The notes under the pieces are model-generated. The model did no database searches and was not told the DNA's origin. It was given only the letters and a program-made list of their open reading frames with translations. Made by a program: the position numbers and the translations under genes. This document shows positions 5,918-47,188 of a DNA stretch of 64,000 nt, in pieces (position 1 is the first letter of the stretch; every line of letters begins with the position of its first letter). Origin of the DNA: an uncultured virus (IMG/VR IMGVR_UViG_3300028173_000008) (taxonomy: Duplodnaviria > Heunggongvirae > Uroviricota > Caudoviricetes); the IMG/VR virus record IMGVR_UViG_3300028173_000008. One strand, given 5' to 3'.

Positions 5918-5921
5918 CTAT

Positions 5922-6347: not shown

Positions 6348-6361
6348 TTCAAGGAGGTGTC

Positions 6362-8035: not shown

Positions 8036-8050
8036 CTACAGCGGTACTAG

Positions 8051-8124
8051 GGCGACGTAGCCAAGTTGGTTAAAGCACTGGTCTGCAAAACCAGAGATCC
8101 CCGGTTCGAATCCGGGCGTCGCCT
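8051..8124 (+). tRNA. tRNA-Cys(GCA)
   Basis: cloverleaf, U73. Confidence 0.9.
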
Positions 8125-8197
8125 CTTTTCGGACGGTAGCTCAGTGGTAGAGCTTCGGTAGCTCTCCTATCAGGAGTCTCATGGTAGGAGGTGGGCT

Positions 8198-8545: not shown

Positions 8546-8608
8546 CTCAGTGGCTAGAGCGAACGGCTGATAACCGTTAGGGCGAGGGTTCGAGTCCCTC
8601 TCTCCCGA
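8536..8608 (+). tRNA. tRNA-Ile(GAT), cassette cargo
   Basis: cloverleaf; ORF stop TAG = positions 8-10. Confidence 0.9.
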
Positions 8609-8752
8609 CTTTTACTACCGTGGGGCCGGAGGTTCGAATCCTCCTCGTCCGACCAGTAGGGAAAGGTGGCGGTCTGAGAGCCTGCCGGGTTCTGCAAGGC
8701 CCAATGGTTCAACGTCTGTTGCAGCAGGCCCCGTGCGCCGCCCTGCGTTCAT

Positions 8753-8822
8753 GCCCTCGCCCGTGGATCGGGGCTTTGGTCTTCTAAACCGGAGGTCGAG
8801 GGTTCGATTCCTTCCGGGGGCG
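8753..8822 (+). tRNA. tRNA-Arg(TCT), shortened D arm
   Basis: acceptor, anticodon and T arms canonical. Confidence 0.7.
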
Positions 8823-8881
8823 CTAGTTTGTCTATGGGCAGGGGATGGTAGAGTGGATCGACTCCACGAGGAGATACCGTC

Positions 8882-10054
8882 ATGGGCTACAACGTCCCCG
8901 AACCTTACGCCTCGCTCCTTGCCACGTACCCCGACGTAGCGAACGTCAAGTACGTGTCCCCACCGGATGCTAACCATCTGGAGGGAACGGGGGACGGCTC
9001 ATTGGTCAACCCGTACAGGGGCATCCAGACGGCCATCGATGCTTTTCCGCCCACAGAGATGCCTCCGCCTGACCCGGCGGACATGGGCCCAGAGGATCTG
9101 GTCAACCTGTTCCGGTTCATCGTCGTCAATTCGGGTGTGTACGACGAGAGCCCCATTATCACAGAGGCAGGGCTCTGGTCCTTTCAATCAGCAGGGCAGG
9201 TCCTGCTGATCTCCCCTGTGGCTTTCGCTTACCTGTGGGATCCTGAGCACGAGCCGCCCCCGTCCATTGACGACATGCGGTTCTTCCACCTGAACCCGGA
9301 TGAAACCAAGCTTGACGCTTGGGGCATGTTCATCTTGGACATTCAGCCCCTCTACGGTGCCCCGAAAGACAAGATGATCGGCGGCATCGGCAGGAACGGC
9401 AGCACCGGGGGTCTGCAGATGTGGACCCTTATGGGCGGGATCGTCTACGAGGTGGAAGCACCCCTCGGTGGCTGGACGCACACCCCGTCGCCGTCCATTA
9501 GCTTGAAAGATGTCTACGGCCTGGTACTCGTCCCTGGAGAGAACGGGGATTGGGAAGCCGACATCAACATCGACTGTGACCGAGTCTCGTTCAACTACTT
9601 CGAAGTCCTGGGGCTGGAGAAGTACGACGTCGAGATCCTCAACTCCGCCTTCAGTGGCCTTGAGCAGTACTCTGGACCTGGTGCCCCTATCTACACGCAG
9701 ACCTGCCGGTTCTGGGCCAGCAACTGCAACATCACGGGCGACGTGTTCGTGGCAGACGCCGACATCGTGTTCGACCACGTTTCCATGAGCGGTGGAGACC
9801 TGATTTTCAGGACCTACTGGTCCATCCTGGACTGCAACCTGGACGTCAACGAGTGGGAACACACACAGTCCCCGTCGGGATCGGTCATCATCAACACCTA
9901 CTTCGACGTGAACTCGTGGGGTGCGGCCCTTCCCCTGAACGCCCTGAACGTCTGCGCCACCACCTGTGCGATGAGCAGTTCGGCCCTGTCCAGCTTGCCC
10001 GTCCCACATAGCAACTACGCATCAGTCACGAACAGCGTCGTGATCCCCCCGTAA
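8882..10054 (+). CDS. acidic hypothetical protein (possibly beta-helix/virion)
   Basis: 390-aa ORF with GGAG RBS; GDGSLVNPY..IQ.AIDA motif. Confidence 0.7.
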   Translation: MGYNVPEPYASLLATYPDVANVKYVSPPDANHLEGTGDGSLVNPYRGIQTAIDAFPPTEMPPPDPADMGPEDLVNLFRFIVVNSGVYDESPIITEAGLWSFQSAGQVLLISPVAFAYLWDPEHEPPPSIDDMRFFHLNPDETKLDAWGMFILDIQPLYGAPKDKMIGGIGRNGSTGGLQMWTLMGGIVYEVEAPLGGWTHTPSPSISLKDVYGLVLVPGENGDWEADINIDCDRVSFNYFEVLGLEKYDVEILNSAFSGLEQYSGPGAPIYTQTCRFWASNCNITGDVFVADADIVFDHVSMSGGDLIFRTYWSILDCNLDVNEWEHTQSPSGSVIINTYFDVNSWGAALPLNALNVCATTCAMSSSALSSLPVPHSNYASVTNSVVIPP

Positions 10055-10057
10055 CCT

Positions 10058-10130
10058 GCCCCAGTAGCTCAGTGGATAGAGCATCGGTCTCCTAAACCGA
10101 GGGCCGCAGGTTCGATTCCTGCTTGGGGCA
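10058..10130 (+). tRNA. tRNA-Arg(CCT)
   Basis: cloverleaf. Confidence 0.92.
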
Positions 10131-10164
10131 CTCCCTTCAACAGCACCGCAACAAGGAGAACACC

Positions 10165-10218
10165 ATGGTACTTCGTCTCAAACAGCCGCCGACCCCCATT
10201 CGTTTACTGGGCCGGTAG
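10165..10218 (+). CDS. 17-aa mini-ORF MVLRLKQPPTPIRLLGR ending inside tRNA-Lys
   Basis: AAGGAG RBS; TAG = tRNA positions 8-10. Confidence 0.45.
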   Translation: MVLRLKQPPTPIRLLGR

Positions 10219-10284
10219 CTCAACTGGATAGTCAGCAAGCGGCTTTTAACCGCTAGGTTCCGGGTTCAAGTCCCGGTCGGCCCA
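10209..10284 (+). tRNA. tRNA-Lys(TTT)
   Basis: cloverleaf. Confidence 0.88.
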
Positions 10285-10289
10285 CTATT

Positions 10290-10363
10290 GCGGACGTAGC
10301 CAAGAGGTAAGGCATCGGGCTTCCACCCCGTGAGCGCCGGTTCGATTCCGGTCGTCCGCTCCA
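10290..10363 (+). tRNA. tRNA-Gly(TCC)
   Basis: cloverleaf, CCA. Confidence 0.9.
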
Positions 10364-10404
10364 CCAACAGGGCTTAGGTAGTTCCTCTATTGCGTAGACA
10401 CCCA

Positions 10405-10772
10405 TGGGTAGGATGTCAGCCTCGGTGAAGCTGGGTACGCAGTGGAGGGGCACAAAACGACGCCTGCACCGCCCGTGAGATAGGCCCAAACGGGGAACCG
10501 TCAACCGGGGAGGGGGTGGAAGTCCTCTTGACCCGCCCGGAAGGGTCCTGCGTTGAGCCGTCATCTTGAGGGCGGCCTTGAAGGGCAGCGTAGGTACACC
10601 CCCTGAAGGACGCCCTTTGGCTGGTGCTTGGACTGGCCCCTGTGGATGAGGGTTTGTATCAACCAAGCTGGAAGCGGAGTACTCGTCCCCATTGTTGAAT
10701 CCCACCTTCGGGTGCGGTACTGGACGAGCCGGAAGTACCCCATGGCACGGCGTACTTCCGGCTGTGGGCGTG
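10405..10772 (+). ncRNA. ~370 nt structured non-coding RNA
   Basis: directly after a GGCTTAG promoter; 12-bp AGCCGGAAGTAC/GTACTTCCGGCT helix; no credible ORF. Confidence 0.5.
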
Positions 10773-10773
10773 A

Positions 10774-10845
10774 GGGCGTATAACTCAGCGGAAGAGTGCC
10801 GTCTTGACAAGGCGGAAGTCCCTGGTTCAATCCCAGGTACGCCCA
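10774..10845 (+). tRNA. tRNA-Val(GAC)
   Basis: cloverleaf. Confidence 0.9.
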
Positions 10846-10862
10846 CTGAATCGGAGGGCTAG

Positions 10863-11048
10863 GTGACGAACAAGGACAAGTGGTTCGCAACCTGTATGGT
10901 GTTGATGCTTGTGACAGGCTTCGGTCTTGTGGGGCTTGGCCTCGACTCAACGCTGGCATCGATCTTTGAGGTGGCCGCAGCCGCCATCTGGCTCTTTGGA
11001 GTTCCGAAAGTCAGCCGTAGAGCACACCAGTACATCTACGGCAGGTAG
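10863..11048 (+). CDS. small membrane protein
   Basis: GGAGG RBS, two hydrophobic segments. Confidence 0.6.
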   Translation: MTNKDKWFATCMVLMLVTGFGLVGLGLDSTLASIFEVAAAAIWLFGVPKVSRRAHQYIYGR

Positions 11049-11054
11049 TTTTGG

Positions 11055-11126
11055 CGCGGGGTAGGGAAGTGGCATCCTCCTTGGCTCATAACCAAGGGAT
11101 CGGCGGTTCAAGTCCGCCCCCCGCAA
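11055..11126 (+). tRNA. tRNA-fMet(CAT)
   Basis: CGCGGGG start, C1:A72 mismatch. Confidence 0.8.
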
Positions 11127-11273
11127 CCTCTCGGGCAATCTGACTCGGCCCGTAAGCCCGCCCCACGTCCCCGTCAGGGTGACGAGCACCCGAAAGGGTA
11201 GGGCAACAGGAGCAGACCGTGGGAAGACGCTTTGTACAGCGTCGGAATGCGTCCCGGAGGGACGCCCCACCGT

Positions 11274-11345
11274 GCGGGTGTAGTTCAGGGGTAGAACGTC
11301 AGCTTCCCAAGCTGGATGTCGTGGGTTCGAATCCCATCACCCGCT
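11274..11345 (+). tRNA. tRNA-Gly(CCC)
   Basis: cloverleaf. Confidence 0.92.
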
Positions 11346-11349
11346 CTAT

Positions 11350-11422
11350 GGGGCCTTAGCTCACTTGGGAGAGCGCCGCTTTTGCAAGGCGGAGGTAGCC
11401 GGTTCGATCCCGGCAGGCTCCA
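11350..11422 (+). tRNA. tRNA-Ala(TGC)
   Basis: cloverleaf, G3:U70. Confidence 0.92.
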
Positions 11423-11425
11423 CTA

Positions 11426-11480
11426 TGGGGAGGGCGGGGTGGTCAGGCCCGAAAGGGAGCAGCCATCCTGACCCTACCCA
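11426..11480 (+). ncRNA. ffs: minimal SRP (4.5S) RNA, helix 8 domain
   Basis: GGTCAGGCCC-GAAA-GGGAGCAGCC matches helix-8 GGUCAGGUCCGGAAGGAAGCAGCC; closed by TGGG..CCCA. Confidence 0.85.
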
Positions 11481-11534
11481 CCAGGCTTAGCCTCCCGTTC
11501 ACCTGTGTTGAAGAGGTGGACGACGGAGGACGAC

Positions 11535-11981
11535 ATGAGCGTTACATTTTGGTGCCCCGAAGCTCCCCGAGAGGCCATCGAGACCCCTTGCTGGGGCGAG
11601 TGCGACGAAACCTGCCCCATGTGTCACGGCACCAACGTGACCACGGAACAGGTCAGCCCGCACGAGATGAACCTCGCCAACGCCAACGCCTACAACATCC
11701 TCCTCGCCTTGGGTGTCCAGAGTGACGAATCCATGTGCGGCGGGTGGGAGACCCCCGAGGACATCCGCACCATCAGGGCGGCGATCCTCAAGGCCCGCAA
11801 CGTGACAGGCCGCAGGGAAGGGGCACACCGAGACGCCGAATCCTACGGCGGGCCGGGAACTGGAACCTGCCGGGTCGTTTCGCAGGGCTACACCGACGAG
11901 CAGGTACTCGACCGGCTGACCCGGTTGGACAAGCTCCTCGCCTACGCTTTGGAGAACAGTCACCGGGTGGTTTGGGGATGA
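11535..11981 (+). CDS. hypothetical protein (Zn ribbon)
   Basis: GGAGG RBS, CxxC motifs. Confidence 0.7.
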   Translation: MSVTFWCPEAPREAIETPCWGECDETCPMCHGTNVTTEQVSPHEMNLANANAYNILLALGVQSDESMCGGWETPEDIRTIRAAILKARNVTGRREGAHRDAESYGGPGTGTCRVVSQGYTDEQVLDRLTRLDKLLAYALENSHRVVWG

Positions 11982-12556
11982 GTGCTCACCGTGAGCGTGT
12001 GAAAATGCTCAAGCGGGTCAACGCCCACCAGCAAGTCAACGACCCCTTCTGGTTGTCCGGCTACACCGACGGAAGCCACCATCCCGACACAGGGAAGGGC
12101 GGCGTGGGCCTGTGGGTACGGGACAACGAGACCCGAATCCTCAAGGCTATACCGACCCCTCCGTGGGCTGTGAACTCCAACCTCGTGGAACTGTTCGGGG
12201 TCTGCGCCGCCATTGAGACGGCCCTGACGGAACTCACACAGGAAGCCAACATCCTCGTCATCAAGACGGACAGCCAGAGCACGGCCAACTGGTTCGGCTG
12301 GCAGGGCAACAAGTCCGTACCGAAGCAGCCTGAAGCCCTCGAGATGATGCAGCACGTCCTAGAGCTTGCCACCGACCGCCGAGTGAAGGTGGTCGTCAAG
12401 TGGGTGAAGGGACACCAAGGCACGGGCAGCGTCGTGGGCTACTTGAACAACCGGGTCGACAAGATGGCCCGTGATGCACGACTGAAAGGTGTACCCTCTC
12501 GCTGGTCCTGCCGGGTCAACGAGGAACGCAAGCAAGGGCCTGTAGCTCAACGGTAG
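11978..12556 (+). CDS. rnhA: ribonuclease HI
   Basis: YTDGS, NSNLVEL, KTDSQ, KWVKGH, NNRVDKMA. Confidence 0.85.
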   Translation: MSAHRERVKMLKRVNAHQQVNDPFWLSGYTDGSHHPDTGKGGVGLWVRDNETRILKAIPTPPWAVNSNLVELFGVCAAIETALTELTQEANILVIKTDSQSTANWFGWQGNKSVPKQPEALEMMQHVLELATDRRVKVVVKWVKGHQGTGSVVGYLNNRVDKMARDARLKGVPSRWSCRVNEERKQGPVAQR

Positions 12557-12608
12557 AGCCTCCCGCTCATAACGGGACGGTCGACGGGTTCGACTCCCTC
12601 CGGGCCCA
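12536..12608 (+). tRNA. tRNA(CAT), probably Ile2
   Basis: GGGCCTG acceptor typical of Ile2; overlaps rnhA end. Confidence 0.75.
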
Positions 12609-12658
12609 CTAGCCCCTAAACAGCAAGCAGCAGGGTAGGATAAGGCAGGAGGTGCCTC

Positions 12659-12898
12659 ATGCCGGATCTACCCTACGTGATGCTCACTGGACTCATCCTC
12701 ATGCTGGTCGGTGTTCCCCTCTGGATGTACCGCTCAGAGAAGAAGAAGGTGGAGGCCGGGTGTTGCGGGAAGCCGTGGATCTCCTACTGCCGTGACTCAC
12801 AGGGCGGCATCGGCTTGAACTGTCAGGAGTGCGACAACGGCACTTGGGTATCCTACTACCGCAAGGGCTTCGTTGAGGGCGAACAGCAACCATTCTAG
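12659..12898 (+). CDS. small membrane-anchored protein
   Basis: GGAGG RBS, N-terminal TM. Confidence 0.6.
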   Translation: MPDLPYVMLTGLILMLVGVPLWMYRSEKKKVEAGCCGKPWISYCRDSQGGIGLNCQECDNGTWVSYYRKGFVEGEQQPF

Positions 12899-12968
12899 GC
12901 TCGTAGCTCAGTGGGAGAGCGCCTGCTTCACACGCAGGAAGTCCCCGGTTCAAAACCGGGCGGGCCTA
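12897..12968 (+). tRNA. tRNA-Val(CAC)
   Basis: cloverleaf. Confidence 0.9.
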
Positions 12969-12986
12969 CTTTGAAGGAGGGCTAAC

Positions 12987-13514
12987 ATGGAAAGCACACG
13001 CAGAGGGTTCCTTGCAGGAGCCGCTGGAGTCACAGGTTGGCTCCTGTTCGGCAAGGGTGCCGAAGCCGCAGCGAAGGCCGAGGGCAACCGTGTCCTGCGG
13101 GAGTTCGATGAGGACGTTGAGGGGTTTCCGCATCACGTCATCGAGATGCAGTTGACCTACGACAACCCGATGCTCCAGTTCGACGTGCCACTGCCGGACT
13201 CGGACTTCGATGGCCTACAGATCAGCATCCCAAGGCGTCAGACGGTGGGCCGCCACACGGCGACGGAGCTTGTGGACTACCACAAGCGGAGCCAACCCGA
13301 CGGTGACATCTGGGGGATCATCCGCCAGCGTGTACCCCAGATGGCACAGGCGAGGGTGAAGAATCCCGCCTACGGCGACCACAAGATGCACATCGCCACG
13401 GTGGTGTGCCACTGCCCGAGCGGGATCGAGGTGGGCATGACGGTGTTGCCCGTAGGCGTGACCGTCGAGGACATGCACCTGACCATCCCGGCAACGCTGT
13501 TGCCGCAGTCCTGA
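12987..13514 (+). CDS. hypothetical protein with Tat-like signal
   Basis: STRRGFLAG. Confidence 0.7.
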   Translation: MESTRRGFLAGAAGVTGWLLFGKGAEAAAKAEGNRVLREFDEDVEGFPHHVIEMQLTYDNPMLQFDVPLPDSDFDGLQISIPRRQTVGRHTATELVDYHKRSQPDGDIWGIIRQRVPQMAQARVKNPAYGDHKMHIATVVCHCPSGIEVGMTVLPVGVTVEDMHLTIPATLLPQS

Positions 13515-13532
13515 CAACGCACAAGGCTCCAA

Positions 13533-13608
13533 GGGCGAGTAGCGCAGTGGAAGTAGCACCGGCTTTACAAGCCGTAGGTCGTGGGTTCAATCCCCACCTC
13601 GCCCACCA
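13533..13608 (+). tRNA. tRNA-Val(TAC)
   Basis: cloverleaf, CCA. Confidence 0.85.
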
Positions 13609-13647
13609 TTCAGGCTTAGCCGGACGCCCGTCCGTGTAGAGAACCTC

Positions 13648-13953
13648 ATGAAGCAGGAAACCCAAGAGTGCCCCCTGTGCCACCGTGACTGCCCACAGGC
13701 GATCATGACGGAGCACCACTTGAAGACCCGCAGGGTGGACAAGGACGACACGGCGATGCTGTGCCGGGAGTGCCACAAGACGGTACACGGGCTCTTTGAC
13801 AACAAGGAACTACGGGACTCGTCCAGAGGGCTGGACACGGTCGAGGGGCTGCTTGCAGACCCCTTGATCCGAAAGGCCCTCTCCCACATCAGGAAGCTCC
13901 CGCCCGGTCAGTTCATGCGGATGTATCGGGCCGGACGCCGCAAGAAGCGCTAG
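13648..13953 (+). CDS. small HNH-like protein
   Basis: CPLCHR..TEHHL..LCRECHKTVH. Confidence 0.75.
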   Translation: MKQETQECPLCHRDCPQAIMTEHHLKTRRVDKDDTAMLCRECHKTVHGLFDNKELRDSSRGLDTVEGLLADPLIRKALSHIRKLPPGQFMRMYRAGRRKKR

Positions 13954-13969
13954 ACACCAATCCAAACAT

Positions 13970-14043
13970 GCCCCGGTAGCTCAGTGGATTAGAGCACACC
14001 CCTGCGGAGGGTGGGGTCGGAGGTTCGAATCCTCTCCGGGGTA
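13970..14043 (+). tRNA. tRNA-Arg(GCG)
   Basis: cloverleaf. Confidence 0.88.
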
Positions 14044-14103
14044 CTTGTGCGCCCGTAGCTTTATGGTTTCTCCTCCGGTATTATCCGGGCAACAGGAGGA
14101 ACC

Positions 14104-14616
14104 ATGCCAACCTGCAAGAAATGTGGTGTCTCATTCCCCAACAGGATAACGGTTGAGGGGGGCAGGCGAAACATCTCCAGACGGAAATTCTGCCTGACAT
14201 GTTCCCCTTGGGGGTCTCGAAACCGAAAAGACCTGAGTGCCCCCTCGATTACCAGCGGAGTGAAAACCTGCCCTCGGTGTGGGGACGTGAAGGAACTCAC
14301 TGAGTTCTACACCAGACGGAGAGGTAAGGAGTCCGAGCCTTCCTCCTACTGTAAGGCATGCGCCGCAGAGGAAGCACGGGGACGTATGCGGGCATTGAAA
14401 GCCCGTTGCGTTGAGTACAAGGGAGGCGGGTGCCGGGTTTGTGGGTACTCGAAAAGCCTCGCTGCGTTGGATTTCCATCACAGGGATCCCAAGGAGAAAG
14501 GTTACGGGATTTCGCAGATCCGAGGTTGGAAATTCGAACGGGTAAAGGAAGAATTAGATAAATGTGACCTTCTGTGTCGGAATTGCCACTCAGAGGTTCA
14601 TGACGAGGCCCTGTAA
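14104..14616 (+). CDS. HNH endonuclease
   Basis: YKGGGCRVCGY..ALDFHHRDP..ELDKCDLLCRNCHSEVH. Confidence 0.9.
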   Translation: MPTCKKCGVSFPNRITVEGGRRNISRRKFCLTCSPWGSRNRKDLSAPSITSGVKTCPRCGDVKELTEFYTRRRGKESEPSSYCKACAAEEARGRMRALKARCVEYKGGGCRVCGYSKSLAALDFHHRDPKEKGYGISQIRGWKFERVKEELDKCDLLCRNCHSEVHDEAL

Positions 14617-14679
14617 CCCAGTGGATAGGGTGCCTGACTTCGAATCAGGTTGTCGCAGGTTCGAGTCCTGCCAGGGCCA
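14607..14679 (+). tRNA. tRNA-Arg(TCG), cassette cargo
   Basis: cloverleaf; ORF stop TAA = positions 8-10. Confidence 0.9.
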
Positions 14680-14716
14680 TCAGGTTGGGAGTTCGAATCT
14701 CCCCGGGCGTTCTTTT

Positions 14717-14793
14717 CAGGGGGTAGCTCAGTCTGGCAGAGTCCCGGCCTTGGACGCCGGTTGTCGCGGGTTCGAATCCCGCCTCCCTGACCA
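14717..14793 (+). tRNA. tRNA-Pro(TGG)
   Basis: cloverleaf, CCA. Confidence 0.92.
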
Positions 14794-37298: not shown

Positions 37299-37664
37299 TG
37301 GTGGAGGTGCGGGGAATCGAACCCCGGTCCTAAGATGCCTACGCCAACGCACTACGCTCATTTCCCGTGTTTATCCCGCACGGGCAAGGTGCTTCGATCC
37401 TCAACGCACATGCTGCTGTTAGTCATCGCCTTCAGGTAGCCGCCTGCCCGCTATCCTGAACGCCAACCCGTTTCTGCTGTAACCTCACGCCCCGAATCGG
37501 GTGCTCTGACGTGAGAATGAAGCACCAGCACAGTCTTTCGACTACGCTGCCGCCTGCATCGGAAGGGTCTCGTTGGCAATTAAGCCTTTGCCGTCTGTAA
37601 CGCCCGACAGCACTCGGAACGAACGTTTAGCCTCGTACACCCCAGTCGAAACCAGTACACCCCC
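37299..37664 (-). ncRNA. ssrA: tmRNA, tag ANETLPMQAAA*
   Basis: GGGGGTGTACTGGTTTCGAC 5' end; GGTTCGATTCCCCGCACCTCCACCA 3' end; tag at 37577-37542. Confidence 0.95.
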
Positions 37665-39373: not shown

Positions 39374-39697
39374 ATGTCCAAGTTCACCGTCGACTGTTTC
39401 ACCGAGAAGTCACTCCCGGAGCCGGGGTTCCCTGAGAACACCTACGAGGCGGCCACCGTGCTGGAGGCTGCGGCTGTTGTCCATAACTGCACCCGCAAGC
39501 AGGCCGGGATCAGGATGGTTCAGATCTGGATCGAAGAGCCGGACGACCGAGAGGCCGTCGACACGCTCAAGACGTGCCGGTGTGGGACGAAGGGATGCGA
39601 TACAAAGCGCATTGACCCTGACGAGGTAGCGAAGGCGCTGGGGGCGGAGAAGGCCGTGAAGCCGAAGAACCTGCCCCGCAGGCCGGGGACACGGTAG
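39374..39697 (+). CDS. hypothetical protein
   Basis: GGAGG RBS. Confidence 0.6.
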   Translation: MSKFTVDCFTEKSLPEPGFPENTYEAATVLEAAAVVHNCTRKQAGIRMVQIWIEEPDDREAVDTLKTCRCGTKGCDTKRIDPDEVAKALGAEKAVKPKNLPRRPGTR

Positions 39698-39784
39698 GCG
39701 GAAGCGGAGGGAGTCGAACCCTCAAGGCCGTAAAGCTCGCCTGTTTTCAAGACAGGTGCCGTCGCCACGTCGGCTGGCGCTTCC
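39697..39784 (-). tRNA. tRNA-Ser(TGA)
   Basis: cloverleaf, long variable arm. Confidence 0.9.
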
Positions 39785-39806
39785 AAGTTGAACAGTAGGT
39801 CTTCGT

Positions 39807-39897
39807 TGGCGGAAGGAGGGGGAGTCGAACCCCCAAGGCGCTCATCACGCTCGACCACTTTCCAAGCGGCTGCCATCACCAATTGGCTTGCCCTTCC
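39807..39897 (-). tRNA. tRNA-Ser(GGA)
   Basis: cloverleaf, CCA. Confidence 0.9.
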
Positions 39898-39901
39898 AAA
39901 G

Positions 39902-39988
39902 TGCGACCGGAGGGATTCGAACCCTCACGCCAGTCATTGTTGACACTGGCCCCTCAAGCCAGCGCGTCTACCATTCCGCCACGGTCGC
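39902..39988 (-). tRNA. tRNA-Leu(GAG)
   Basis: cloverleaf. Confidence 0.9.
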
Positions 39989-39993
39989 ATGAG

Positions 39994-40075
39994 TGCTGCC
40001 GGTGGGACTCGAACCCACACACCTCAAGGGCACGGGCCTCTCAGACCCGCATGTCTACCATTCCATCACGACAGC
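39994..40075 (-). tRNA. tRNA-Leu(GAG)
   Basis: cloverleaf. Confidence 0.88.
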
Positions 40076-40078
40076 ATA

Positions 40079-40200
40079 GAAAGCACCCCAGCACGTAGGG
40101 AACCACGGGTTGGTTACCGCTGGCCGCCCACTCCTCCCAGAAGTGCTGCTTCTCTGTGGTCTTGGACACCCCTGATCTACAGCCCCGGCTGGGGTGCCTT
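40079..40200 (-). ncRNA. unassigned ~120 nt hairpin RNA
   Basis: GGCACCCCAGC/GCTGGGGTGCT closing stem. Confidence 0.45.
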
Positions 40201-40290
40201 TGGCGGAAGGACGGGGAGTCGAACCCCGAAGGCCGGTTAAGGCTCGCTGGTTTTCGAAACCAGTGCAGTCGCCCATCTGCTTGCCCTTCC
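40201..40290 (-). tRNA. tRNA-Ser(CGA)
   Basis: cloverleaf, CCA. Confidence 0.9.
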
Positions 40291-40291
40291 A

Positions 40292-40367
40292 TGGAGCGCT
40301 CGCCCGGACTTGAACCGGGGACCACCGGCTTCGGAGGCCGGGACTCTATCCACTGAGCTACGAGCGC
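40292..40367 (-). tRNA. tRNA-Arg(CCG)
   Basis: cloverleaf, CCA. Confidence 0.92.
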
Positions 40368-40370
40368 AAA

Positions 40371-40523
40371 GGTGGGGGAGGTAGGAATCGAACCTACAAT
40401 GCCCTCTCGGGCGGTCTGCTTTACAGGCAGATGTCTATACCTTGCTGAAGTCGCAACAGAGTTCCCGACCGGGGTCAGGATAAGGTCGTCACAACGAGTA
40501 GCGTGACTTTTGACCACTCCCCC
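40371..40523 (-). tRNA. tRNA-Tyr(GTA) with ~68-nt structured D-loop insertion
   Basis: GGGGGAG/CTCCCCC acceptor, TCTGC-CTGTAAA-GCAGA, variable arm, T arm; insert 40442-40509. Confidence 0.8.
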
Positions 40524-40527
40524 ATAG

Positions 40528-40600
40528 AGCCAACGACGGGAATCGAACCCGTAACCCCTTGCTTACCATGCAAGTGCTCTACCGTTGGAGCTACGTTGGC
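40528..40600 (-). tRNA. tRNA-Thr(GGT)
   Basis: cloverleaf. Confidence 0.92.
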
Positions 40601-40618
40601 ATGCTTGAATCAGACAAG

Positions 40619-40690
40619 AGCCCAGTACCGGAGTCGAACCGATGTCAGCGGGTTACAAATCCGCTGCTCTGCCACTTGAGCTAACTGGGC
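40619..40690 (-). tRNA. tRNA-Thr(TGT)
   Basis: cloverleaf. Confidence 0.88.
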
Positions 40691-40723
40691 AAATCAGGTG
40701 CTCTACCGTTGAGCCACGCTAGC
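40691..40723 (-). pseudogene. orphan 5' half of a Thr-type tRNA
   Basis: GCTAGCG-TG-GCTCAACGGTAGAGC-A-CCTGA-TTT fused directly to tRNA-Thr(TGT). Confidence 0.75.
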
Positions 40724-40727
40724 AAAG

Positions 40728-40799
40728 AGCCGAAGGTCGGAATCGAACCGACAACCTGCCGCTTACGAAACGGCTGCTCTACCATTGAGCTACATCGGC
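40728..40799 (-). tRNA. tRNA-Thr(CGT)
   Basis: cloverleaf. Confidence 0.9.
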
Positions 40800-40854
40800 A
40801 AAGTGCGACCGGGGGGAGTCGAACCCCCACGCCTCAAAGGCACCGGATTCTAAG

Positions 40855-40934
40855 TGGCTGAGGTGGGAGTCGAACCCACACGCCCTAAGCGCCCGCCTCT
40901 AAAACGGGTGCGTCTACCGTTCCGCCACTCAGCC
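40855..40934 (-). tRNA. tRNA-Leu(TAG), cassette cargo
   Basis: cloverleaf; ORF stop TGA inside acceptor strand. Confidence 0.88.
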
Positions 40935-41429
40935 TTTTTCTTGTTTGGTCACGGAGGTCAACCCTTTGCTATTACACCACCCAGGTTGTTGGGAGTGGCA
41001 GTTAGGGCACAGGAATCGTAAGTTTTCAGGGCGGTTGTCTAACCAGTCTCGGTTGATGTGGTCCACCTGTAGCATGAGGGGTTTCCCGACCCACACTCCC
41101 TCGATCCCACAAGATTCGCACGCATAGGGCCGCCCACTGTCAAGGAGAGCCCTCCGTAAGCGGTACGCTGCGGTACGCCTCCCTGTGTCCTTCTTTGACA
41201 GGGTAGTTAGCCACGGAGTCTTTCCCGGGCCTCCCTTATGGGCTGTTCCCTTGTTGGATCCTTGACCGTGGAAATGGACTGTGTCGAGTCCGTATTCCCG
41301 TACCTTACGGGTGATGTGCGTTTGTGTCCCGCCCGCCTGTTTCACCCCCAAATCTCGAAGCACGCCCGCCATGGAAGTGTTCTGTTGAACAAGTGGGGCT
41401 AGGATCTCTTTTGTGTAACGTCGTCCCAT
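40929..41429 (-). CDS. HNH endonuclease
   Basis: CESCG..LQVDHINRDWLDNRPENLRFLCPNCHSQ. Confidence 0.9.
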   Translation of the reverse strand: MGRRYTKEILAPLVQQNTSMAGVLRDLGVKQAGGTQTHITRKVREYGLDTVHFHGQGSNKGTAHKGGPGKTPWLTTLSKKDTGRRTAAYRLRRALLDSGRPYACESCGIEGVWVGKPLMLQVDHINRDWLDNRPENLRFLCPNCHSQQPGWCNSKGLTSVTKQEKG

Positions 41430-41496
41430 ACACAGCTTACGGTATAGGCTAGCAACCGGAACCGGCGTGTCTACCGTTTCACCACGGTCGCAAAGG

Positions 41497-42341
41497 ATGA
41501 CCACCCGTAGCCGGGATCCTGTTTTATGGACACATTCATCTAGTGGCCCCTACCCGTCCGCATAGCGCTGCTCACCCGCTCTTGGCCCAACCCCGATGCC
41601 GAGAGCGTTGCCCTGAAAAGAGCTTCTGCATTCCTTGGCGTGTAAGGCCGTGACGTTGGCAGAACAGATTGAGGGACGGGGTCACTTCGTGTTCAGCCCC
41701 GTCAGGAGAACGGACTTTGGGGTAGGGCTGCTTCTTCTTAGTGCGGCTGATCGCCGCCTTTTCCGCTTCCGTTGGGGAAGCCTTCCGACCACCCGATCCC
41801 ACAGCGTTCTTATTGCCCCGCTGCAAAAGTGACAGGGCTTGCTTCGTTTCTTCTGTATGCTTGTAACCCAGGCTGTTGCCTGCTTCTGGGAGGATGTTGT
41901 ACTTCTTGGCTTTCGGGGTCTTGTCCAACCACTCCTGTTCCTTCTCCAAGAGCTTGTCGTGGGCCGCCTGAACAAGCACAAAGAAGCAAATGTCCTCTTC
42001 ACCCCTCTTGGCAAAGGCTCGTTGTAAGGGGGTGTTATGGTGGGTGCCTTTTCGAAGAAGCCTCCCATGTGCTGAGAACCTCTTGTAGAGATCCACTGCG
42101 GACCCGATGTAGAGCTTCCCCGAAGCCCTACTTCTGATGGCATAGACACCGCTCTTACCGTGTAGCGCAGAATAAGGGGTACCTTTCATGGAAGGGTCCA
42201 ATTTCATAGGCCAAAGATACCACGTTCCTGTTTGGGTTGCACCCTCGGAAGTGCGAACGGCCTACGGCCTCCTTCCTTCAGCAGTGGTGTCCCGAGCTTC
42301 CTCACATCCCTTGCGGGGTAGTGCGTGCCCTCAGTGGTCAT
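41497..42341 (-). ncRNA. rnpB: RNase P RNA (reduced), interrupted by GIY-YIG ORF
   Basis: P1 ATGACCAC/GTGGTCAT; P2 GGGCAC/GTGTCC; P4 GAGGA-AGC(U)CGGGA / ACAGGA-TCCCGGCT with bulged U; CGGGTAGG L15-like; CTAGATGAATG. Confidence 0.8.
41572..42207 (-). CDS. GIY-YIG homing endonuclease with NUMOD3-like motif
   Basis: SGVYAI..YIGSA..KRF..H, EKEQ.WLD, YN, HTEETK. Confidence 0.9.
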   Translation of the reverse strand: MKLDPSMKGTPYSALHGKSGVYAIRSRASGKLYIGSAVDLYKRFSAHGRLLRKGTHHNTPLQRAFAKRGEEDICFFVLVQAAHDKLLEKEQEWLDKTPKAKKYNILPEAGNSLGYKHTEETKQALSLLQRGNKNAVGSGGRKASPTEAEKAAISRTKKKQPYPKVRSPDGAEHEVTPSLNLFCQRHGLTRQGMQKLFSGQRSRHRGWAKSG

Positions 42342-42425
42342 GGTGCCAGAGGGGGGACTCGAACCCCCACGCCTCAAGGACAGACGGTTTTGAACCGACC
42401 GCGTCTACCATTCCGCCACTCTGGC
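42341..42425 (-). tRNA. tRNA-Leu(CAA)
   Basis: cloverleaf, CCA. Confidence 0.88.
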
Positions 42426-42433
42426 AAGTAAGT

Positions 42434-42522
42434 TGGTGGAGGAGGTGGGATTCGAACCCACTCACCGCAACGCGGACCAGATTTACAGTCTGGCGTGACT
42501 CTCCAACTTCAACCGCTCCTCC
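42434..42522 (-). tRNA. tRNA-Tyr(GTA)
   Basis: cloverleaf, CCA. Confidence 0.85.
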
Positions 42523-42526
42523 AAAG

Positions 42527-42598
42527 TGGAAAGGGGTGGAATCGAACCACCGACACGGGGATTTTCAGTCCCCTGCTCTACCTCTGAGCTACCCCTCC
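42527..42598 (-). tRNA. tRNA-Phe(GAA)
   Basis: cloverleaf. Confidence 0.9.
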
Positions 42599-42999
42599 AT
42601 GCGTTTCCAGTCCCCGAACTCCTCCTTGCCGCCCCTGCACCCCCAGTCCGAGTCGATGACCAGGCGGGACGAGATCCCGCCACGGGGCCGGAGGTCCGCT
42701 ACGAGGCGCAACCGGGCCGGTTCATAGACCGCCACGAGATCCTCGTAGATGACGTTGATGAGGCGTTCGTAGGAGATCACCTTGGACCTGAAGGCCACCA
42801 CGTACTCCTTGAGTGCCTTCAGTTCGATGATCCAGTCCGCCGGGTAGAAGACCAACGTCAGGTGACCGAAGTCCGGTTGCTGTTTGACGCCCATGAACGT
42901 CAACTCCGGGATCTCCATCCTGATCTCGTACCCGTCTGGGTCGGGGTTCGGCAGCCTCTTCAGCTTGTCCTTCTCCGACCACTTGTCATGCTTGCCCAT
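42589..42999 (-). CDS. queF: QueF-like T-fold protein lacking the catalytic Cys
   Basis: PELTFMGVKQQPDF, IELKALKEY, SYE, PRGGI. Confidence 0.8.
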   Translation of the reverse strand: MGKHDKWSEKDKLKRLPNPDPDGYEIRMEIPELTFMGVKQQPDFGHLTLVFYPADWIIELKALKEYVVAFRSKVISYERLINVIYEDLVAVYEPARLRLVADLRPRGGISSRLVIDSDWGCRGGKEEFGDWKRMEG

Positions 43000-43038
43000 G
43001 TCGTTCCCCCTTGTTGTCCGGGGAACTATACCGATCAG

Positions 43039-43112
43039 TGCCAAGGGGCGGGATCGAACCGCCGACACCCCGGATTTCACCCGAGTGCTCTACCTACCTG
43101 AGCTACCTTGGC
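43039..43112 (-). tRNA. tRNA-Phe(GAA)
   Basis: cloverleaf. Confidence 0.88.
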
Positions 43113-43116
43113 AGAA

Positions 43117-43190
43117 GGCAGAGGTAGTGGGAATCGAACCCACCCGACGGTCGGTTTTGGAGACCAACCCGCTTACCCAGAGCCACCTCT
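43117..43190 (-). tRNA. tRNA-Trp(CCA), short D arm
   Basis: AGAGGTG/TACCTCT, TTGGT-CTCCAAA-ACCGA. Confidence 0.75.
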
Positions 43191-43224
43191 ACAAGAATGT
43201 GCGGGGAATCGAACCGGGGCTTTG

Positions 43225-43680
43225 CTAGCGAATGAACTTGAGGGCTTGGGCGTTGACCATCTTCAGGATGTCACGGGGGGACATGGAGGCGAAGGAGGTC
43301 ATCGACATGGAGTGCGTGCTGGTTTCCTCGTCCTCGATCCCCTTTTCCTCTACATAGACGAACACCCACCACTGTACCTGGTTGCGTTGGAAGTCGGGGG
43401 TGAAGTACGCGATGACGTGGTCCTCACCCGGAGTCGAGGACTGGCTGGGGGAGGGGAGATTCGGGAAAGCGATCTCCACAGTCATCCCCTTCCTGTAAAT
43501 CTCGCCCACATGGTCGGCCTGCGTGGCCTTGCCGACCTTCTTCATCCACTGGAAGAATGCCTTGTGGAACAGACCGATAAGGTCACCCGTTGCCGCCTCT
43601 TTCCGCAGAAGGGGCAGGATGTGCTTGCGGGTTTCAGGTACTTCATGGGCCAGTCTGACCAGTTCGCTTTTAAGATCCAT
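43225..43680 (-). CDS. hypothetical (virion-type N-terminus LVRLAHEVPETRKHILPLLRKEAA)
   Basis: GGAGG RBS. Confidence 0.7.
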   Translation of the reverse strand: MDLKSELVRLAHEVPETRKHILPLLRKEAATGDLIGLFHKAFFQWMKKVGKATQADHVGEIYRKGMTVEIAFPNLPSPSQSSTPGEDHVIAYFTPDFQRNQVQWWVFVYVEEKGIEDEETSTHSMSMTSFASMSPRDILKMVNAQALKFIR

Positions 43681-43722
43681 GGGGTCCTCCTGTGTCCCTA
43701 ATGGAACCTTATAGCCCAAGTA

Positions 43723-43778
43723 GGTGCCAGAGGGGGGACTCGAACCCCCACGCCTCAAGGACAGACGGTTTTGAACCG
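43723..43778. repeat. 56-bp exact direct repeat of 42342-42397
   Basis: GGTGCCAGAGGGGGGACTC...TTTTGAACCG. Confidence 0.9.
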
Positions 43779-43807
43779 GATGCGGCTACCAGTTACGCCA
43801 TCCCGGC
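43723..43807 (-). pseudogene. chimeric tRNA-Leu
   Basis: 3' 56 nt identical to 42342-42397; 5' half does not pair properly with it. Confidence 0.75.
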
Positions 43808-43816
43808 GTATGAAAG

Positions 43817-43902
43817 TGGATGATCAAGGAATCGAACCTTGCTGCCGCGTCAGCGGACCGGGGTTACAGCCCAGCGCAAGCACCAGCTTGACCGTATCAT
43901 CC
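43817..43902 (-). tRNA. tRNA-Tyr(GTA)
   Basis: cloverleaf, atypical D arm. Confidence 0.75.
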
Positions 43903-43905
43903 AGA

Positions 43906-43994
43906 GGCGGAGGGAGAGGGAGTCGAACCCTCAAGGCCGATTAAGGCTCGTCCGGTTAGCAACCGGGTGCAGTCACCGATCTGCTTGCCCCTCC
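43906..43994 (-). tRNA. tRNA-Ser(GCT)
   Basis: cloverleaf. Confidence 0.9.
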
Positions 43995-44005
43995 GTGAAT
44001 TGGAC

Positions 44006-44115
44006 CGGGTCGCTCTTATCGTCTTCCTGGGGCGTTGCCACCCCGCAGACGTTTATCCACGACCAACCGCTGTACAAGCGGCTGCGCTATCCCCCGAGGG
44101 GGAGCCCAACGACCC
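44006..44115 (-). ncRNA. unassigned multibranch RNA
   Basis: GGGTCGTT/AGCGACCC closing stem; CCCCC-tc-GGGGG, CCGCT-tgtac-AGCGG and GGGGTG-gcaa-CGCCCC hairpins. Confidence 0.45.
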
Positions 44116-44119
44116 AAAG

Positions 44120-44202
44120 TGCTGCTGAAAGGAGTCGAACCTTCACGCCCCGAAGGACACTTGGACCTGAACCAAGCGCGTCTACCATTCCGCCACAGCA
44201 GC
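44120..44202 (-). tRNA. tRNA-Leu(CAG)
   Basis: cloverleaf. Confidence 0.92.
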
Positions 44203-44246
44203 AAAGAACGGTGCTGGAAGCTGGGCAACTCCCAGCACCGAAGACC

Positions 44247-44296
44247 TACTATTCAATTGTCAAAGACCCTCTGGCCGCCGCCCTGTGGCAGAGGCC
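44247..44296 (-). promoter_or_regulatory. boxB-like hairpin + boxA
   Basis: GGTCTTTGACAATTGAATAGTA, 21/22 identical to 1993-2014. Confidence 0.75.
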
Positions 44297-44304
44297 CTAA
44301 ACGC

Positions 44305-44338
44305 AAAAAGCCCGCTCCGGGTGTGTCCGGGCGGGCTT
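44305..44338 (-). terminator. intrinsic terminator (attenuator)
   Basis: AAGCCCGCCCGG-acacac-CCGGAGCGGGCTT-TTT. Confidence 0.85.
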
Positions 44339-44360
44339 CCAAGGTCAGCAGATGTTGTGC

Positions 44361-44459
44361 TTACCCCGTTACACCCTCCGGCGCACTCGTGGACAGATAC
44401 GACCAGCCGGTAAGGCTGACGTGCGTCCGCAAGCTGAAGGTTGTAAATAAGGTCTGCAT
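44361..44459 (-). CDS. 32-aa leader peptide (putative attenuator) MQTLFTTFSLRTHVSLTGWSYLSTSAPEGVTG
   Basis: AGGAG RBS, just after promoter, terminator ~22 nt after stop. Confidence 0.78.
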   Translation of the reverse strand: MQTLFTTFSLRTHVSLTGWSYLSTSAPEGVTG

Positions 44460-44483
44460 CTCGGTCTCTCCTGTTCGCCCCTG

Positions 44484-44512
44484 ACGCTAGAGGCCCTTTG
44501 GGCTCCTGTCAA
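44484..44512 (-). promoter_or_regulatory. sigma70-type promoter of - tRNA operon
   Basis: TTGACA-17-TAGCGT. Confidence 0.65.
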
Positions 44513-44582: not shown

Positions 44583-44634
44583 CCTTGCCGGTAGATTCGT
44601 TATGAGGCTACTCCAGTAGGACATGGAGGCCCGC

Positions 44635-45234
44635 ATGAGCAAGCACACGAACCGGGTAGCAGCCCGGTATATTAAGAGAGCCGCCAGCGAAGACCGCAAA
44701 CAGTTCGACATGGGCGTCAAGGCCATCGGGACATCGCTCCTGCGGATGAAGGACGTGGTCTTCCTCTGGACAGGGAGGGGAACACCCCCTCCGGGACACG
44801 GGGCAGAGGGCTACGAGTCCCTGGCTGACGTGTACGGCCCTGTGCAGCATGTCGTGAACAAGATCGAGGACCTTGAGAAAGCCTACATCAGCCTCAAGCG
44901 TGTTCGTGTGGCCTCCAAGCGGATGGACCCCAAGTTCAAGCGGGCCGTCATTCCGTTGTTCAAGCGGGCAGGCCTGGATGGCAACGGGCGGTTCAGGAAG
45001 CCCCAACACGGGTACTCCAAGGCGTTGGACATCCTCGCCAAGTTCGAGATCGAACTGGACGACGTCGTGTCGTCCCACCTGTTCAACGGGGACAGCGGGA
45101 CGATCCGGGCGGACCTGGCCTATTCGAACTCAGAGGACCCGTTCTCCCCTGAGTCGATTTCCAACTCGGTGCTGGTCATTTCGTTCACTAAGATGGCCAA
45201 GGACAGCTATGAGGTGCTGGCGTATCTGTCATGA
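44635..45234 (+). CDS. hypothetical (virion-type RVAARY motif)
   Basis: GGAGG RBS. Confidence 0.7.
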   Translation: MSKHTNRVAARYIKRAASEDRKQFDMGVKAIGTSLLRMKDVVFLWTGRGTPPPGHGAEGYESLADVYGPVQHVVNKIEDLEKAYISLKRVRVASKRMDPKFKRAVIPLFKRAGLDGNGRFRKPQHGYSKALDILAKFEIELDDVVSSHLFNGDSGTIRADLAYSNSEDPFSPESISNSVLVISFTKMAKDSYEVLAYLS

Positions 45235-45619: not shown

Positions 45620-47188
45620 ATGAAGAGCACGCCGAAACATATCAGGCACGGACTCACCGCCCGCAACCCCCTCCTCGAAGGAGCCCTCGCACTGGCCCGT
45701 GCGGTTGCCGTCACCTACGGTCCACATGGGCGTATCGCCTTGTTAGATAGATTCGCAGGGCTTCTCCCCACGAAAGATGGGGTCACAGTGGCGAGGGAGA
45801 TCCAGTTGGAAGGCCCGAGGGCTCTCGGGGCGGACATCCTTAAGTACTCCTGCATAGCCCTGAATGATAAGTGCGGGGACGGAACAACCACCGCCGCCAT
45901 CGTCAGCGCCGCCCTCCTTCGGGAAGGCCACAAGCGGATCGTGGCCGGGGTGGAACCGAGGACGGTTTGCAACGAGTTGCAAACCGCCTCCGAGAGAGCC
46001 ATCGAGGCCATCCGTGAGATGTCCGTCCGGGCCGACAACCAGAAGGACCTGGATCACGTAGCCCGCATCGCCAGCAACGGAGACGATGACGTGGCCCGGT
46101 GCCTCGCTGAAGGTGCCATGGCCGTCGGCAAGGACGGGACGATCTCCATCGAGGACGGCTATGGCACGGAGACCGTGTTGGAGTACAAGGACGGCTTCGA
46201 GTGTGACGCCCGCCTAGCCTCCCACCACTTCCAAGGCCCAGAGGGTGCCCTCAAGTTGGAAGGTGCCCTCGTGGCGGTGGTCAACCAGCCCATCCACCAG
46301 GTGACAGACGTGGTCTCCCTGTTGGAGGAAGCCTCCCAGTGGCCCAACAACCCGCTGCTGATCTTCGCCCCCTCGTTCAGCGGGATGGTCAACATGACCA
46401 TCGGCATGAACATCAAGGCGTCGAACGTCACGGCTTACCCGGTGCTGGCTCCGGGCGTCCACGTCCAGAAGGTCGAGTACCTGAAGGACATCGCCGCCAT
46501 GGCTGGGGCCGTGTTCATTGACCCGGAGGCGGGCCAGAGCGTTAGGAAGTGGCAGCCGGAGTGGTTCGGCTCCTTGCGCCGTGCGACCGTCGGCATGAAG
46601 TCCTCCCTGTTGGAAGGCTATGATGAGCCGGACAAGCAGGCAGCCCGTGACGCACGCATCCGGGAACTGGAGGGCTTGGAGCGCACTACCACCTCTGAGT
46701 TCGACCTGGACAGGATCAAGGAGCGCAAGGCCAAGCTCGCCGACGGCTTCGTGATCCTACGGGTGGGCGGCATCACCGAGTCCGCTATGAAGGAACGCCG
46801 TGCCCGTGTGGAAGACGCCTTTGGAGCCGTCAGGGCGGCCCTCAGAGAGGGCCTGGTTCCCGGTGGCGGCACAGTGTACCTCCGGGCCGCCGAAGCGCTC
46901 ACAGGGGAAGCACGGGGCACAGGGGGCGACATTCTCCGCAAAGCCCTCCAGGCCCCCGCACTGATGTTAGCTGGTAACGCGGGCCTCGACCCTCACGCTG
47001 TCCTGCACCAGATCGCTGAACACGATTCTCCGTGGGGCGGACTAGACGCCCGCACCGGACAAGTAAGGGACCTGTCACAGGACCCCAAGATAGTAGACCC
47101 CACAGCAGTAGCGGTTGAGGTGGTACGTGCCGCCGTGTCCGTTGCTGTAACTCTGCTGACGGTCGAGTGCTCCGTTGGCAAGGCTTAG
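45620..47188 (+). CDS. groL: chaperonin GroEL
   Basis: TYGPHGR, TKDGVTVAREI, GDGTTTA, RVEDA, GLVPGGG, IVDP. Confidence 0.95.
   Translation: MKSTPKHIRHGLTARNPLLEGALALARAVAVTYGPHGRIALLDRFAGLLPTKDGVTVAREIQLEGPRALGADILKYSCIALNDKCGDGTTTAAIVSAALLREGHKRIVAGVEPRTVCNELQTASERAIEAIREMSVRADNQKDLDHVARIASNGDDDVARCLAEGAMAVGKDGTISIEDGYGTETVLEYKDGFECDARLASHHFQGPEGALKLEGALVAVVNQPIHQVTDVVSLLEEASQWPNNPLLIFAPSFSGMVNMTIGMNIKASNVTAYPVLAPGVHVQKVEYLKDIAAMAGAVFIDPEAGQSVRKWQPEWFGSLRRATVGMKSSLLEGYDEPDKQAARDARIRELEGLERTTTSEFDLDRIKERKAKLADGFVILRVGGITESAMKERRARVEDAFGAVRAALREGLVPGGGTVYLRAAEALTGEARGTGGDILRKALQAPALMLAGNAGLDPHAVLHQIAEHDSPWGGLDARTGQVRDLSQDPKIVDPTAVAVEVVRAAVSVAVTLLTVECSVGKA

Follow-up and report, generated by a model that had tools for sequence, protein, structure and literature searches.

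Codon-matched leader reading frames ahead of two tRNA arrays of an uncultured phage as candidate ribosome-read attenuators

For decades there has been debate over why phages carry tRNA genes and when these genes are used. Expression that is matched to need would be explained by a leader reading the codons served by the array behind it, and the locus considered here raises the question of whether a phage tRNA array is headed by such a leader. The DNA analysed (referred to as the window, 64,000 nucleotides of an uncultured virus of the Caudoviricetes) comes from a viral contig of 106,830 bases and 61.7% GC, and near-identical DNA was contained in seawater and marine metagenome runs of 17 studies, with no RNA run found among them. 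An initial annotation of the window had proposed that a short ORF on the minus strand acts as an attenuator whose codons match the tRNAs of its own operon. Our analysis supports this interpretation in part. The in silico checks that the annotation had proposed came out favourable or neutral, and the analysis identified two features that had been overlooked, namely a twin leader on the plus strand and a hairpin within the ORF itself.

ARAGORN at default settings made 52 calls in the window, comprising 34 plus-strand tRNAs, 17 minus-strand tRNAs and one tmRNA. The minus array was extended with Rfam by tRNA-Trp(CCA) at 43191..43117 and a second tRNA-Tyr(GTA) at 43896..43818, both of which ARAGORN reported only at a relaxed threshold. 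The resulting array of 19 tRNAs opens with tRNA-Leu(CAG) from 44202 and, by ARAGORN and Rfam together, serves Leu, Ser, Thr, Phe, Tyr, Trp and Arg(CCG) only, in agreement with what had been annotated. The plus array, which opens with tRNA-His, has the specificities His, Asn, Pro, Asp, Lys, Glu, Ile, Gly, Ala, Gln, Met, Cys and Val, together with four Arg species (other than CCG) and Thr-CGT.

The minus array also contains embedded genes (QueF-like, GIY-YIG, HNH and one unknown gene) and a structured spacer RNA. The homing-endonuclease genes of the HNH and GIY-YIG types and the QueF-like gene occupy 40929..42207 and 42592..42999 on the minus strand. The spacer RNA of approximately 124 nt (44118..43995, minus strand) lies between tRNA-Leu(CAG) and tRNA-Ser(GCT) and has a counterpart at 782..657 of a related metagenomic locus (L006, described below), with a consensus of 35 pairs, five of them compensatory and none broken. 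No Rfam match was found for this RNA, and contigs of run X19 contain two further copies, both diverged. The tmRNA (37299..37664, minus strand; tag ANETLPMQAAA) lies beyond the downstream end of the minus array, and a Cpn60-type chaperonin gene (45620..47188, plus strand) and a cytidylyltransferase-like (NadD-like) gene (960..1532, plus strand) flank both leader modules.

In both modules a promoter and a short ORF with a ribosome-binding site are present upstream of the array and on its strand, an arrangement that was kept in L006, and in all three leaders (window minus, window plus and L006) a GC-rich hairpin with a U-tract lies between the ORF and the tRNAs (Table 1). The AGGAG motif, the 32-codon ORF, the hairpin with its U-tract and the tRNA array beyond it were read in the minus-strand sequence as the initial annotation had described them, with about 96 nt from the terminator to the 19-tRNA array. 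The promoter that it claimed is likewise present, as TTGACA and TAGCGT, and was located at 44512..44484, outside the interval 44305..44459 to which the attenuator had been assigned. A simple sigma-70 scan missed this promoter because its -10 element matches at just three of six positions, and a simple terminator scan did not list the terminator T1 because its stem has a bulge (AAGCCCGCCCGG-ACACAC-CCGGAGCGGGCTT, then TTTGCGTTT; stability approximately -23.6 kcal/mol, obtained by difference). As neither element was flagged by simple scans, their standing rests on conservation and folding. The tail segment of the minus leader is predicted to have two alternative partners, codons 4-8 (the 1:2 hairpin) or the 5' arm of T1. 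In the plus module, the flank of the promoter (GAGAAAAACCCTTGACAGG) resembles that of the minus module, and the leader tail ACCCGGC (1867..1873) is predicted to pair with the 5' arm of its terminator.

Table 1. Positions of the elements of the two leader modules and of the tRNA arrays in the window
Feature	Position	Strand	Description
Promoter P1, minus module	44484..44512	-	TTGACA 44512..44507, 17-nt spacer, TAGCGT 44489..44484
Shine-Dalgarno AGGAG	44468..44472	-	8 nt ahead of ATG
Leader ORF	44361..44459	-	32 codons + TAA, MQTLFTTFSLRTHVSLTGWSYLSTSAPEGVTG; sensor zone codons 3-25, tail codons 26-32
Tail segment CCGGAGGGTGT	44371..44381	-	Codons 26-30; candidate antiterminator strand
Intrinsic terminator T1	44299..44338	-	5' arm 44338..44327, loop 44326..44321, 3' arm 44320..44308, U-tract to 44299
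Box TCTTTGACAATTGAATAGTA	44247..44266	-	20 nt; candidate second promoter, operator or processing site
Second hairpin, minus module	44209..44240	-	14 pairs, tail TTCTTTGCTG, abuts first tRNA
Minus array	39697..44202	-	19 tRNAs: Leu x7, Ser x5, Thr x3, Phe x2, Tyr x2, Trp, Arg-CCG
Promoter P1, plus module	1645..1673	+	TTGACA 1645..1650, weak -10 TATTCC 1668..1673
Shine-Dalgarno GGAGG	1706..1710	+	10 nt ahead of ATG
Twin leader ORF	1721..1879	+	52 codons + TAA, MLITTKNERRKRQAHGATLASKRDSLFAAVVNHQPAPAAIEGCDDPMGAPGE
Intrinsic terminator, plus module	1904..1938	+	AAAGCCGGGTAACC-GAAA-GGTTCCCCGGCTTTTTT, U-tract
Box, second copy TCTTTGACAACTGAATAGTA	1995..2014	+	One base different from minus-module box
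Second hairpin, plus module	2032..2076	+	GAGGGCAGG...CCTGCCCTC, hairpin 2032..2068, tail ATTTTCAT
Plus array	2167..14793	+	34 tRNAs (ARAGORN); first = tRNA-His from 2167

Our recount of codons 3-25 of the minus leader agreed that 20 of the 23 are Thr, Leu, Phe, Ser, Trp, Tyr or Arg-CGG, and the synonymous Leu, Ser, Thr and Phe codons that had been listed were correct. The codon set of the array makes up 28.8% of the codons in long ORFs, and among 88,491 segments of 23 codons drawn from all six-frame ORFs of the contig the leader was the sole maximum, with three segments at 19 and 17 segments at 18. The proposed enrichment relative to the phage's own ORFs was therefore found to be a unique maximum, and it was specific to one reading frame. 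The other five frames of the same DNA gave 6, 8, 5, 10 and 1 of 23, and none of 20,000 nucleotide shuffles of the leader reached 20, which indicates that base composition is not the cause of the match; composition bias as its source was ruled out by the frame test.

At the level of anticodons, the minus leader covers 14 of the 16 that the array provides and is the sole segment to reach 14 among 77,110 segments of 32 codons. The annotated correspondence between leader and tRNAs needs correction for the codon TTA: the cognate tRNA-Leu(TAA) was found in assembly G000 and in two IMG/VR copies, and the window has a CAA-like loop in its place. The only Arg codon of the leader was confirmed to be CGG, which is also the case in L006. 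When the amino acids were held fixed and synonymous codons were drawn according to phage codon usage, a coverage of 14 was obtained in a fraction of 0.0098 for the minus leader of the window, which uses TTA (1% of Leu codons), TTT, TAT, AGT and ACA. This diversity of synonymous codons was significant in the minus leader of the window alone, the corresponding values being 0.13 for L006 and 0.19 for the plus leader. The sensor zone of the minus leader includes four codons of the other set (Q2, H13, V14 and G18). The leaders sample each anticodon between one and three times, with no codon runs. As single, dispersed codons are unlike the codon arrangement of classical leaders, the sensitivity to any one tRNA may be low.

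The peptide of 52 residues encoded ahead of the plus array has no sequence relation to the minus leader. All 14 amino acids of the plus array are present in it and Trp and Tyr are absent; its Arg codons are CGC, AGA, CGT and CGC, with none being CGG, and ACG, the single Thr codon served by the plus array, accounts for two of its three Thr codons. In-set codons account for 45 of its 52 (a value matched by 2,852 of 59,147 segments, 4.8%), it covers 23 of the 28 plus-array anticodons (matched by 482 of the 59,147, 0.8%), and it contains seven codons of the minus set. The frame of the ORF gave 43 of 50 in comparison to 34, 36, 34, 31 and 39 elsewhere, with a shuffle fraction of 0.0056. By itself the plus leader is moderately unusual, and the signal is strong when it is joined with the minus leader: of 38,760 possible choices of six amino acids, the real set {L,S,T,F,Y,W} alone reaches the joint score of both leaders.

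These results can be interpreted as each array being headed by a ribosome-read attenuator of the trp/ilv type, with a leader written in the codons of its array and with feedback control for each tRNA set, and on the sequence and the modelled folds we regard this reading as moderately probable. With an array placed behind a codon-matched ORF and a transcription stop, its tRNA set would probably be made only when ribosomes read those codons slowly.

Related phages had been suggested as a source of comparative evidence, and our comparison covers two diverged orthologues of the minus leader, one of them known as a peptide only. The divergently oriented neighbour gene of the minus module (44623..45234), which encodes a 203-aa protein, has many distant relatives, and a metagenome scan identified 75 loci with relatives of this protein; among the loci fetched, and apart from L005 (the window's own contig), L006 alone has an array beside this gene. 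This locus of 1,897 bases encodes a neighbour protein with 59% identity and has a promoter with TTGACA and TAGCGT identical to those of the window, separated by a diverged spacer of 18 nt. Its leader ORF (1099..1001; 32 codons, MRTLFTTYSTRTDTSLTSWLSLSTCVPGVATG) is followed by a terminator with the same arms as T1 and a different loop, and then by tRNAs for Leu(GAG), Ser(GCT) and Ser(GGA). The window and L006 ORFs show 27 differences in 96 nucleotides and no indels, with several indels in the flanks.

The composition of the leader was conserved across this divergence. In L006, 21 of the 23 codons belong to the set, in comparison to 4, 6, 7, 12 and 1 in the other frames, and none of 20,000 shuffles reached 21. 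Random substitution starting from the window leader gave a mean of 13.3 and reached 21 in a fraction of 0.00015 (20,000 simulations), and the corresponding fraction for substitution in the reverse direction, from L006 to the window, was 0.0018. A profile search of 1.84 billion proteins identified the third orthologue, P0037 (32 residues, MRTLFTTSSARAADSLTSWSYLSTSVPGVGTR), with 18 of 23 residues in the set, or 19 of 23 if its Arg codon is CGG. Replacements among the three orthologues stayed within the set at position 8 (F/Y/S), position 20 (S/L/S) and position 21 (Y/S/Y), and a central patch at positions 10-14 is looser, with L/T/A at position 10.

Alternatively, the two ORFs may be independent small genes, each an early gene that stands alone between a separate promoter and terminator and yields a small functional peptide, with the arrays transcribed from the box or from a promoter downstream and the codon match a coincidence. 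Invariance of 17 of the 32 residues in the three orthologues would also be expected of a functional peptide, and gene callers have recorded the leader peptides as proteins. The substitutions that did occur are chemically radical, yet they remain inside the tRNA set, and searches of Pfam and PHROGs assigned the three leader peptides to no family. Also in contrast with this explanation are the twin modules, in which unrelated peptides in paralogous settings divide the amino acids as the arrays do, a division reached by one of the 38,760 partitions. We consider independent genes to be an unlikely account of the locus, and return to them below with the antiterminator and the box, both of which bear on it.

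When 50,697 phage records were searched for distant DNA similarity, the tRNA genes alone gave matches. Scans of viral contigs yielded, apart from chance matches, a pair of near-identical contigs from this phage and nothing further, and 23 of the 25 matches of a pattern search were unrelated AT-rich DNA. Similarly, a scan of genome contigs gave two chance matches inside coding regions, without tRNAs, and a protein search with the plus leader recovered only itself. Comparison of the 203-aa protein to phage records by tblastn identified one uncultured 485-kb phage. No leader-like ORF with a terminator was found before the arrays of L091, L098, L078, L096 and Caulobacter phage CcrRogue, and the record behind L098 holds about 20 tRNAs that are unsorted. 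A codon-matched leader is therefore not universal, being absent from the arrays of the more distant phages that were examined.

Folding of the full leaders gave structures in which the terminator is formed and the ORF lies in a long hairpin, with codons 3-8 pairing to the tail. This upstream 1:2 hairpin, which would hold segment 2 when there is no translation, was conserved between the window and L006, the consensus of which contains 46 pairs across the in-ORF hairpin and the terminator, with none broken and four compensatory. Such conservation raises the explanation that the module is an untranslated structured leader RNA, such as an sRNA, a platform for tRNA-precursor processing or a protein-binding switch, in which the open frame is incidental. 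It would account for the intact pairs and for the start and stop regions being part of the base of the hairpin, and a 32-codon open frame is not rare at 62% GC. It does not account for a codon enrichment that each of the three ORFs shows in a single frame out of six, for ribosome-binding sites at 8 and 10 nt, or for ORFs that remained free of indels next to flanks with several, and no Rfam family was matched; an untranslated RNA is accordingly given a small probability.

The attenuation reading makes use of the same folds with a ribosome placed on them. In constrained folds, the bases covered by the ribosome were blocked and the 3' arm of the terminator was left out. Pairing of the tail with the 5' arm was predicted for an A site at or before codon 22 of 32 in the window and L006 leaders, and at or before codon 44 of 52 in the plus leader, and was lost in all three as the ribosome neared the stop codon. 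The modelled folds thus follow the 1:2, 2:3 and 3:4 logic of classical attenuators.

The initial annotation had noted that the 3' end of the minus leader can pair imperfectly with the terminator hairpin, and this pairing between CCGGAGGGTGT and the 5' arm was reproduced as one that depends on ribosome position, albeit with an energy gain that 23.5% of 400 shuffles equalled. In addition, 65.5% of the shuffles paired as many bases of the arm, and in GC-rich shuffles the arm finds some partner almost as often. An antiterminator in the window minus leader that is no better than shuffled sequence is a point in favour of the ORFs being independent genes. The other two leaders gave a clearer signal, with 1.3% of shuffles as good for L006 and none of 400 for the plus leader. 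In every case the terminator was the more stable fold, so any switch must be kinetic.

With ribosome-read attenuation as the working model, the sequence of events would be as follows. A host-type RNA polymerase would start at P1 and a ribosome would load on the leader. If the sampled aminoacyl-tRNAs were all plentiful, the ribosome would reach the stop codon and cover the tail, the terminator would form, and transcription would end approximately 96 nt ahead of the array. If any sampled tRNA were scarce, the ribosome would linger in the sensor zone (codons 3-25 of 32, or approximately 2-44 of 52), leaving the tail free to pair with the 5' arm of the terminator, and the polymerase would read through into the tRNA genes. 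If the leader were not translated, the start of the ORF would sequester the tail in the long hairpin, and the terminator would again form.

Since each array would yield the tRNAs read by its leader, the loop would amount to negative feedback on tRNA supply, with one such loop for each of two halves of the code that complement each other. Candidate causes of scarcity include rare codons in a GC-rich host, host shut-off and tRNA-cleaving defence, and anticodon nucleases are the putative trigger that the initial annotation gave as an example. A broader proposal, that two complementary codon samplers split the genetic code, each reading almost all anticodons of its block, gate approximately 53 tRNA genes set by set in a closed loop, and act as a built-in sensor that switches on replacement tRNAs upon depletion of the host pool, including that caused by tRNA-cleaving defence, is advanced here tentatively and as the more doubtful part of the model.

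Another explanation accepts the attenuator as real and takes it to be unspecific, sensing overall translation capacity, or how closely transcription and translation are coupled (by way of Rho or ribosome availability, for instance), in place of the supply of particular tRNAs. The absence of codon runs is consistent with this, as is the weak synonymous-codon signal in two of the three leaders, and the wrong-set codons would produce cross-talk between the leaders. A set-matched composition would not be needed by such a device, yet the match is specific to the frame, conserved and complementary between modules, and we consider an unspecific sensor to be improbable.

Between the terminator and the first tRNA, each module of the window carries a box that includes TTGACA, and two copies of it were found at up to four mismatches in the 106,830-base contig, one behind each leader terminator. 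The box is partly kept in L006. The second, terminator-like hairpin of the minus module has analogues both in L006 and in the plus module. A conserved, TTGACA-containing box downstream of both terminators is what separate promoters for the arrays, and hence independent leader genes, would call for. As a canonical sigma-70 promoter, however, the box was rejected, as neither copy has a -10-like hexamer 16-18 nt after TTGACA, and this stands equally against the independent-gene explanation. The box could serve a phage factor or a processing enzyme, and box and second hairpin together may act as a second promoter. If the box is a promoter, the arrays could be transcribed without passing the attenuator, which would then be one of two inputs.

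Multivalent attenuators are known from amino-acid operons, the ilvGMEDA leader having Ile, Val and Leu codons and the thr leader Thr and Ile codons. The phage modules resemble these in having a promoter, a short leader with several kinds of regulatory codon, alternative hairpins and a terminator before the regulated genes, all known here from sequence and predicted folds, and in that ribosome position is predicted to choose the fold. They differ in that the phage minus leader samples seven amino acids and 14 anticodons, dispersed and without runs, that the regulated genes are tRNAs as opposed to biosynthetic enzymes, that two phage-borne modules split the code between them, and that the modules show no sequence similarity to these operon leaders.

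The leaders trpL, hisL, leuL and pheL are specific to single amino acids, and the pheST leader controls an aminoacyl-tRNA synthetase operon, in which attenuation is applied to the translation apparatus itself. The phage modules would share with these leaders a three-segment logic and the position of the stop codon, at which a ribosome that terminates would cover segment 2. Such leaders carry tandem runs of one codon, whereas the phage leader draws on a codon set that equals what the tRNA array behind it contains. Uncharged tRNA is bound directly by T-box riboswitches, which need no translation; the phage system would be alike in sensing tRNA status and in choosing between terminator and antiterminator, and would be unlike them in needing translation of its leader. 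Searches of 36000-46000 and 1400-2300 at E values up to 1 found no match to the Rfam Trp, His, Leu and Thr leaders or to the T-box. By analogy, the module would work like the Rfam leader families without being a member by homology.

In the literature that could be searched as full text, with subscription journals largely uncovered, no account was found of leader-peptide attenuation of tRNA genes. A 2010 Nucleic Acids Research paper (PMC3082878) deals with pheL. Phage tRNAs have been tied to escape from tRNA-cleaving defence in a 2023 eLife paper (PMC10264068), the text of which, as far as covered by a term search, returned nothing on leaders, attenuation, terminators or promoters. If the model is true, attenuation would be extended from amino-acid supply to tRNA supply, in a simple cis element of approximately 200 nt. 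The sorting of tRNA genes into amino-acid blocks would also gain a rationale, with one sensor per block. The system would then be a known kind of control, leader attenuation, in a new form.

Strain differences were also recorded. The leader region was free of any differing letter in contigs of four DNA runs, and the window and assembly G000 differ at 30 positions in six patches. One patch (43762..43773) lies inside the tRNA at 43807..43723, where the anticodon arm of a tRNA-Leu is rewritten in the window: the perfect stem with anticodon TAA of G000 and the two IMG/VR copies is replaced by a weakened stem with the CAA-like loop. A second patch (4879..4912), just after tRNA-Asp, includes a change on each side of a T-stem-like helix and falls in a tRNA-like stretch without an ARAGORN call. 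Eight further differences are clustered at 1589..1656, just upstream of and within the spacer of the plus-leader promoter.
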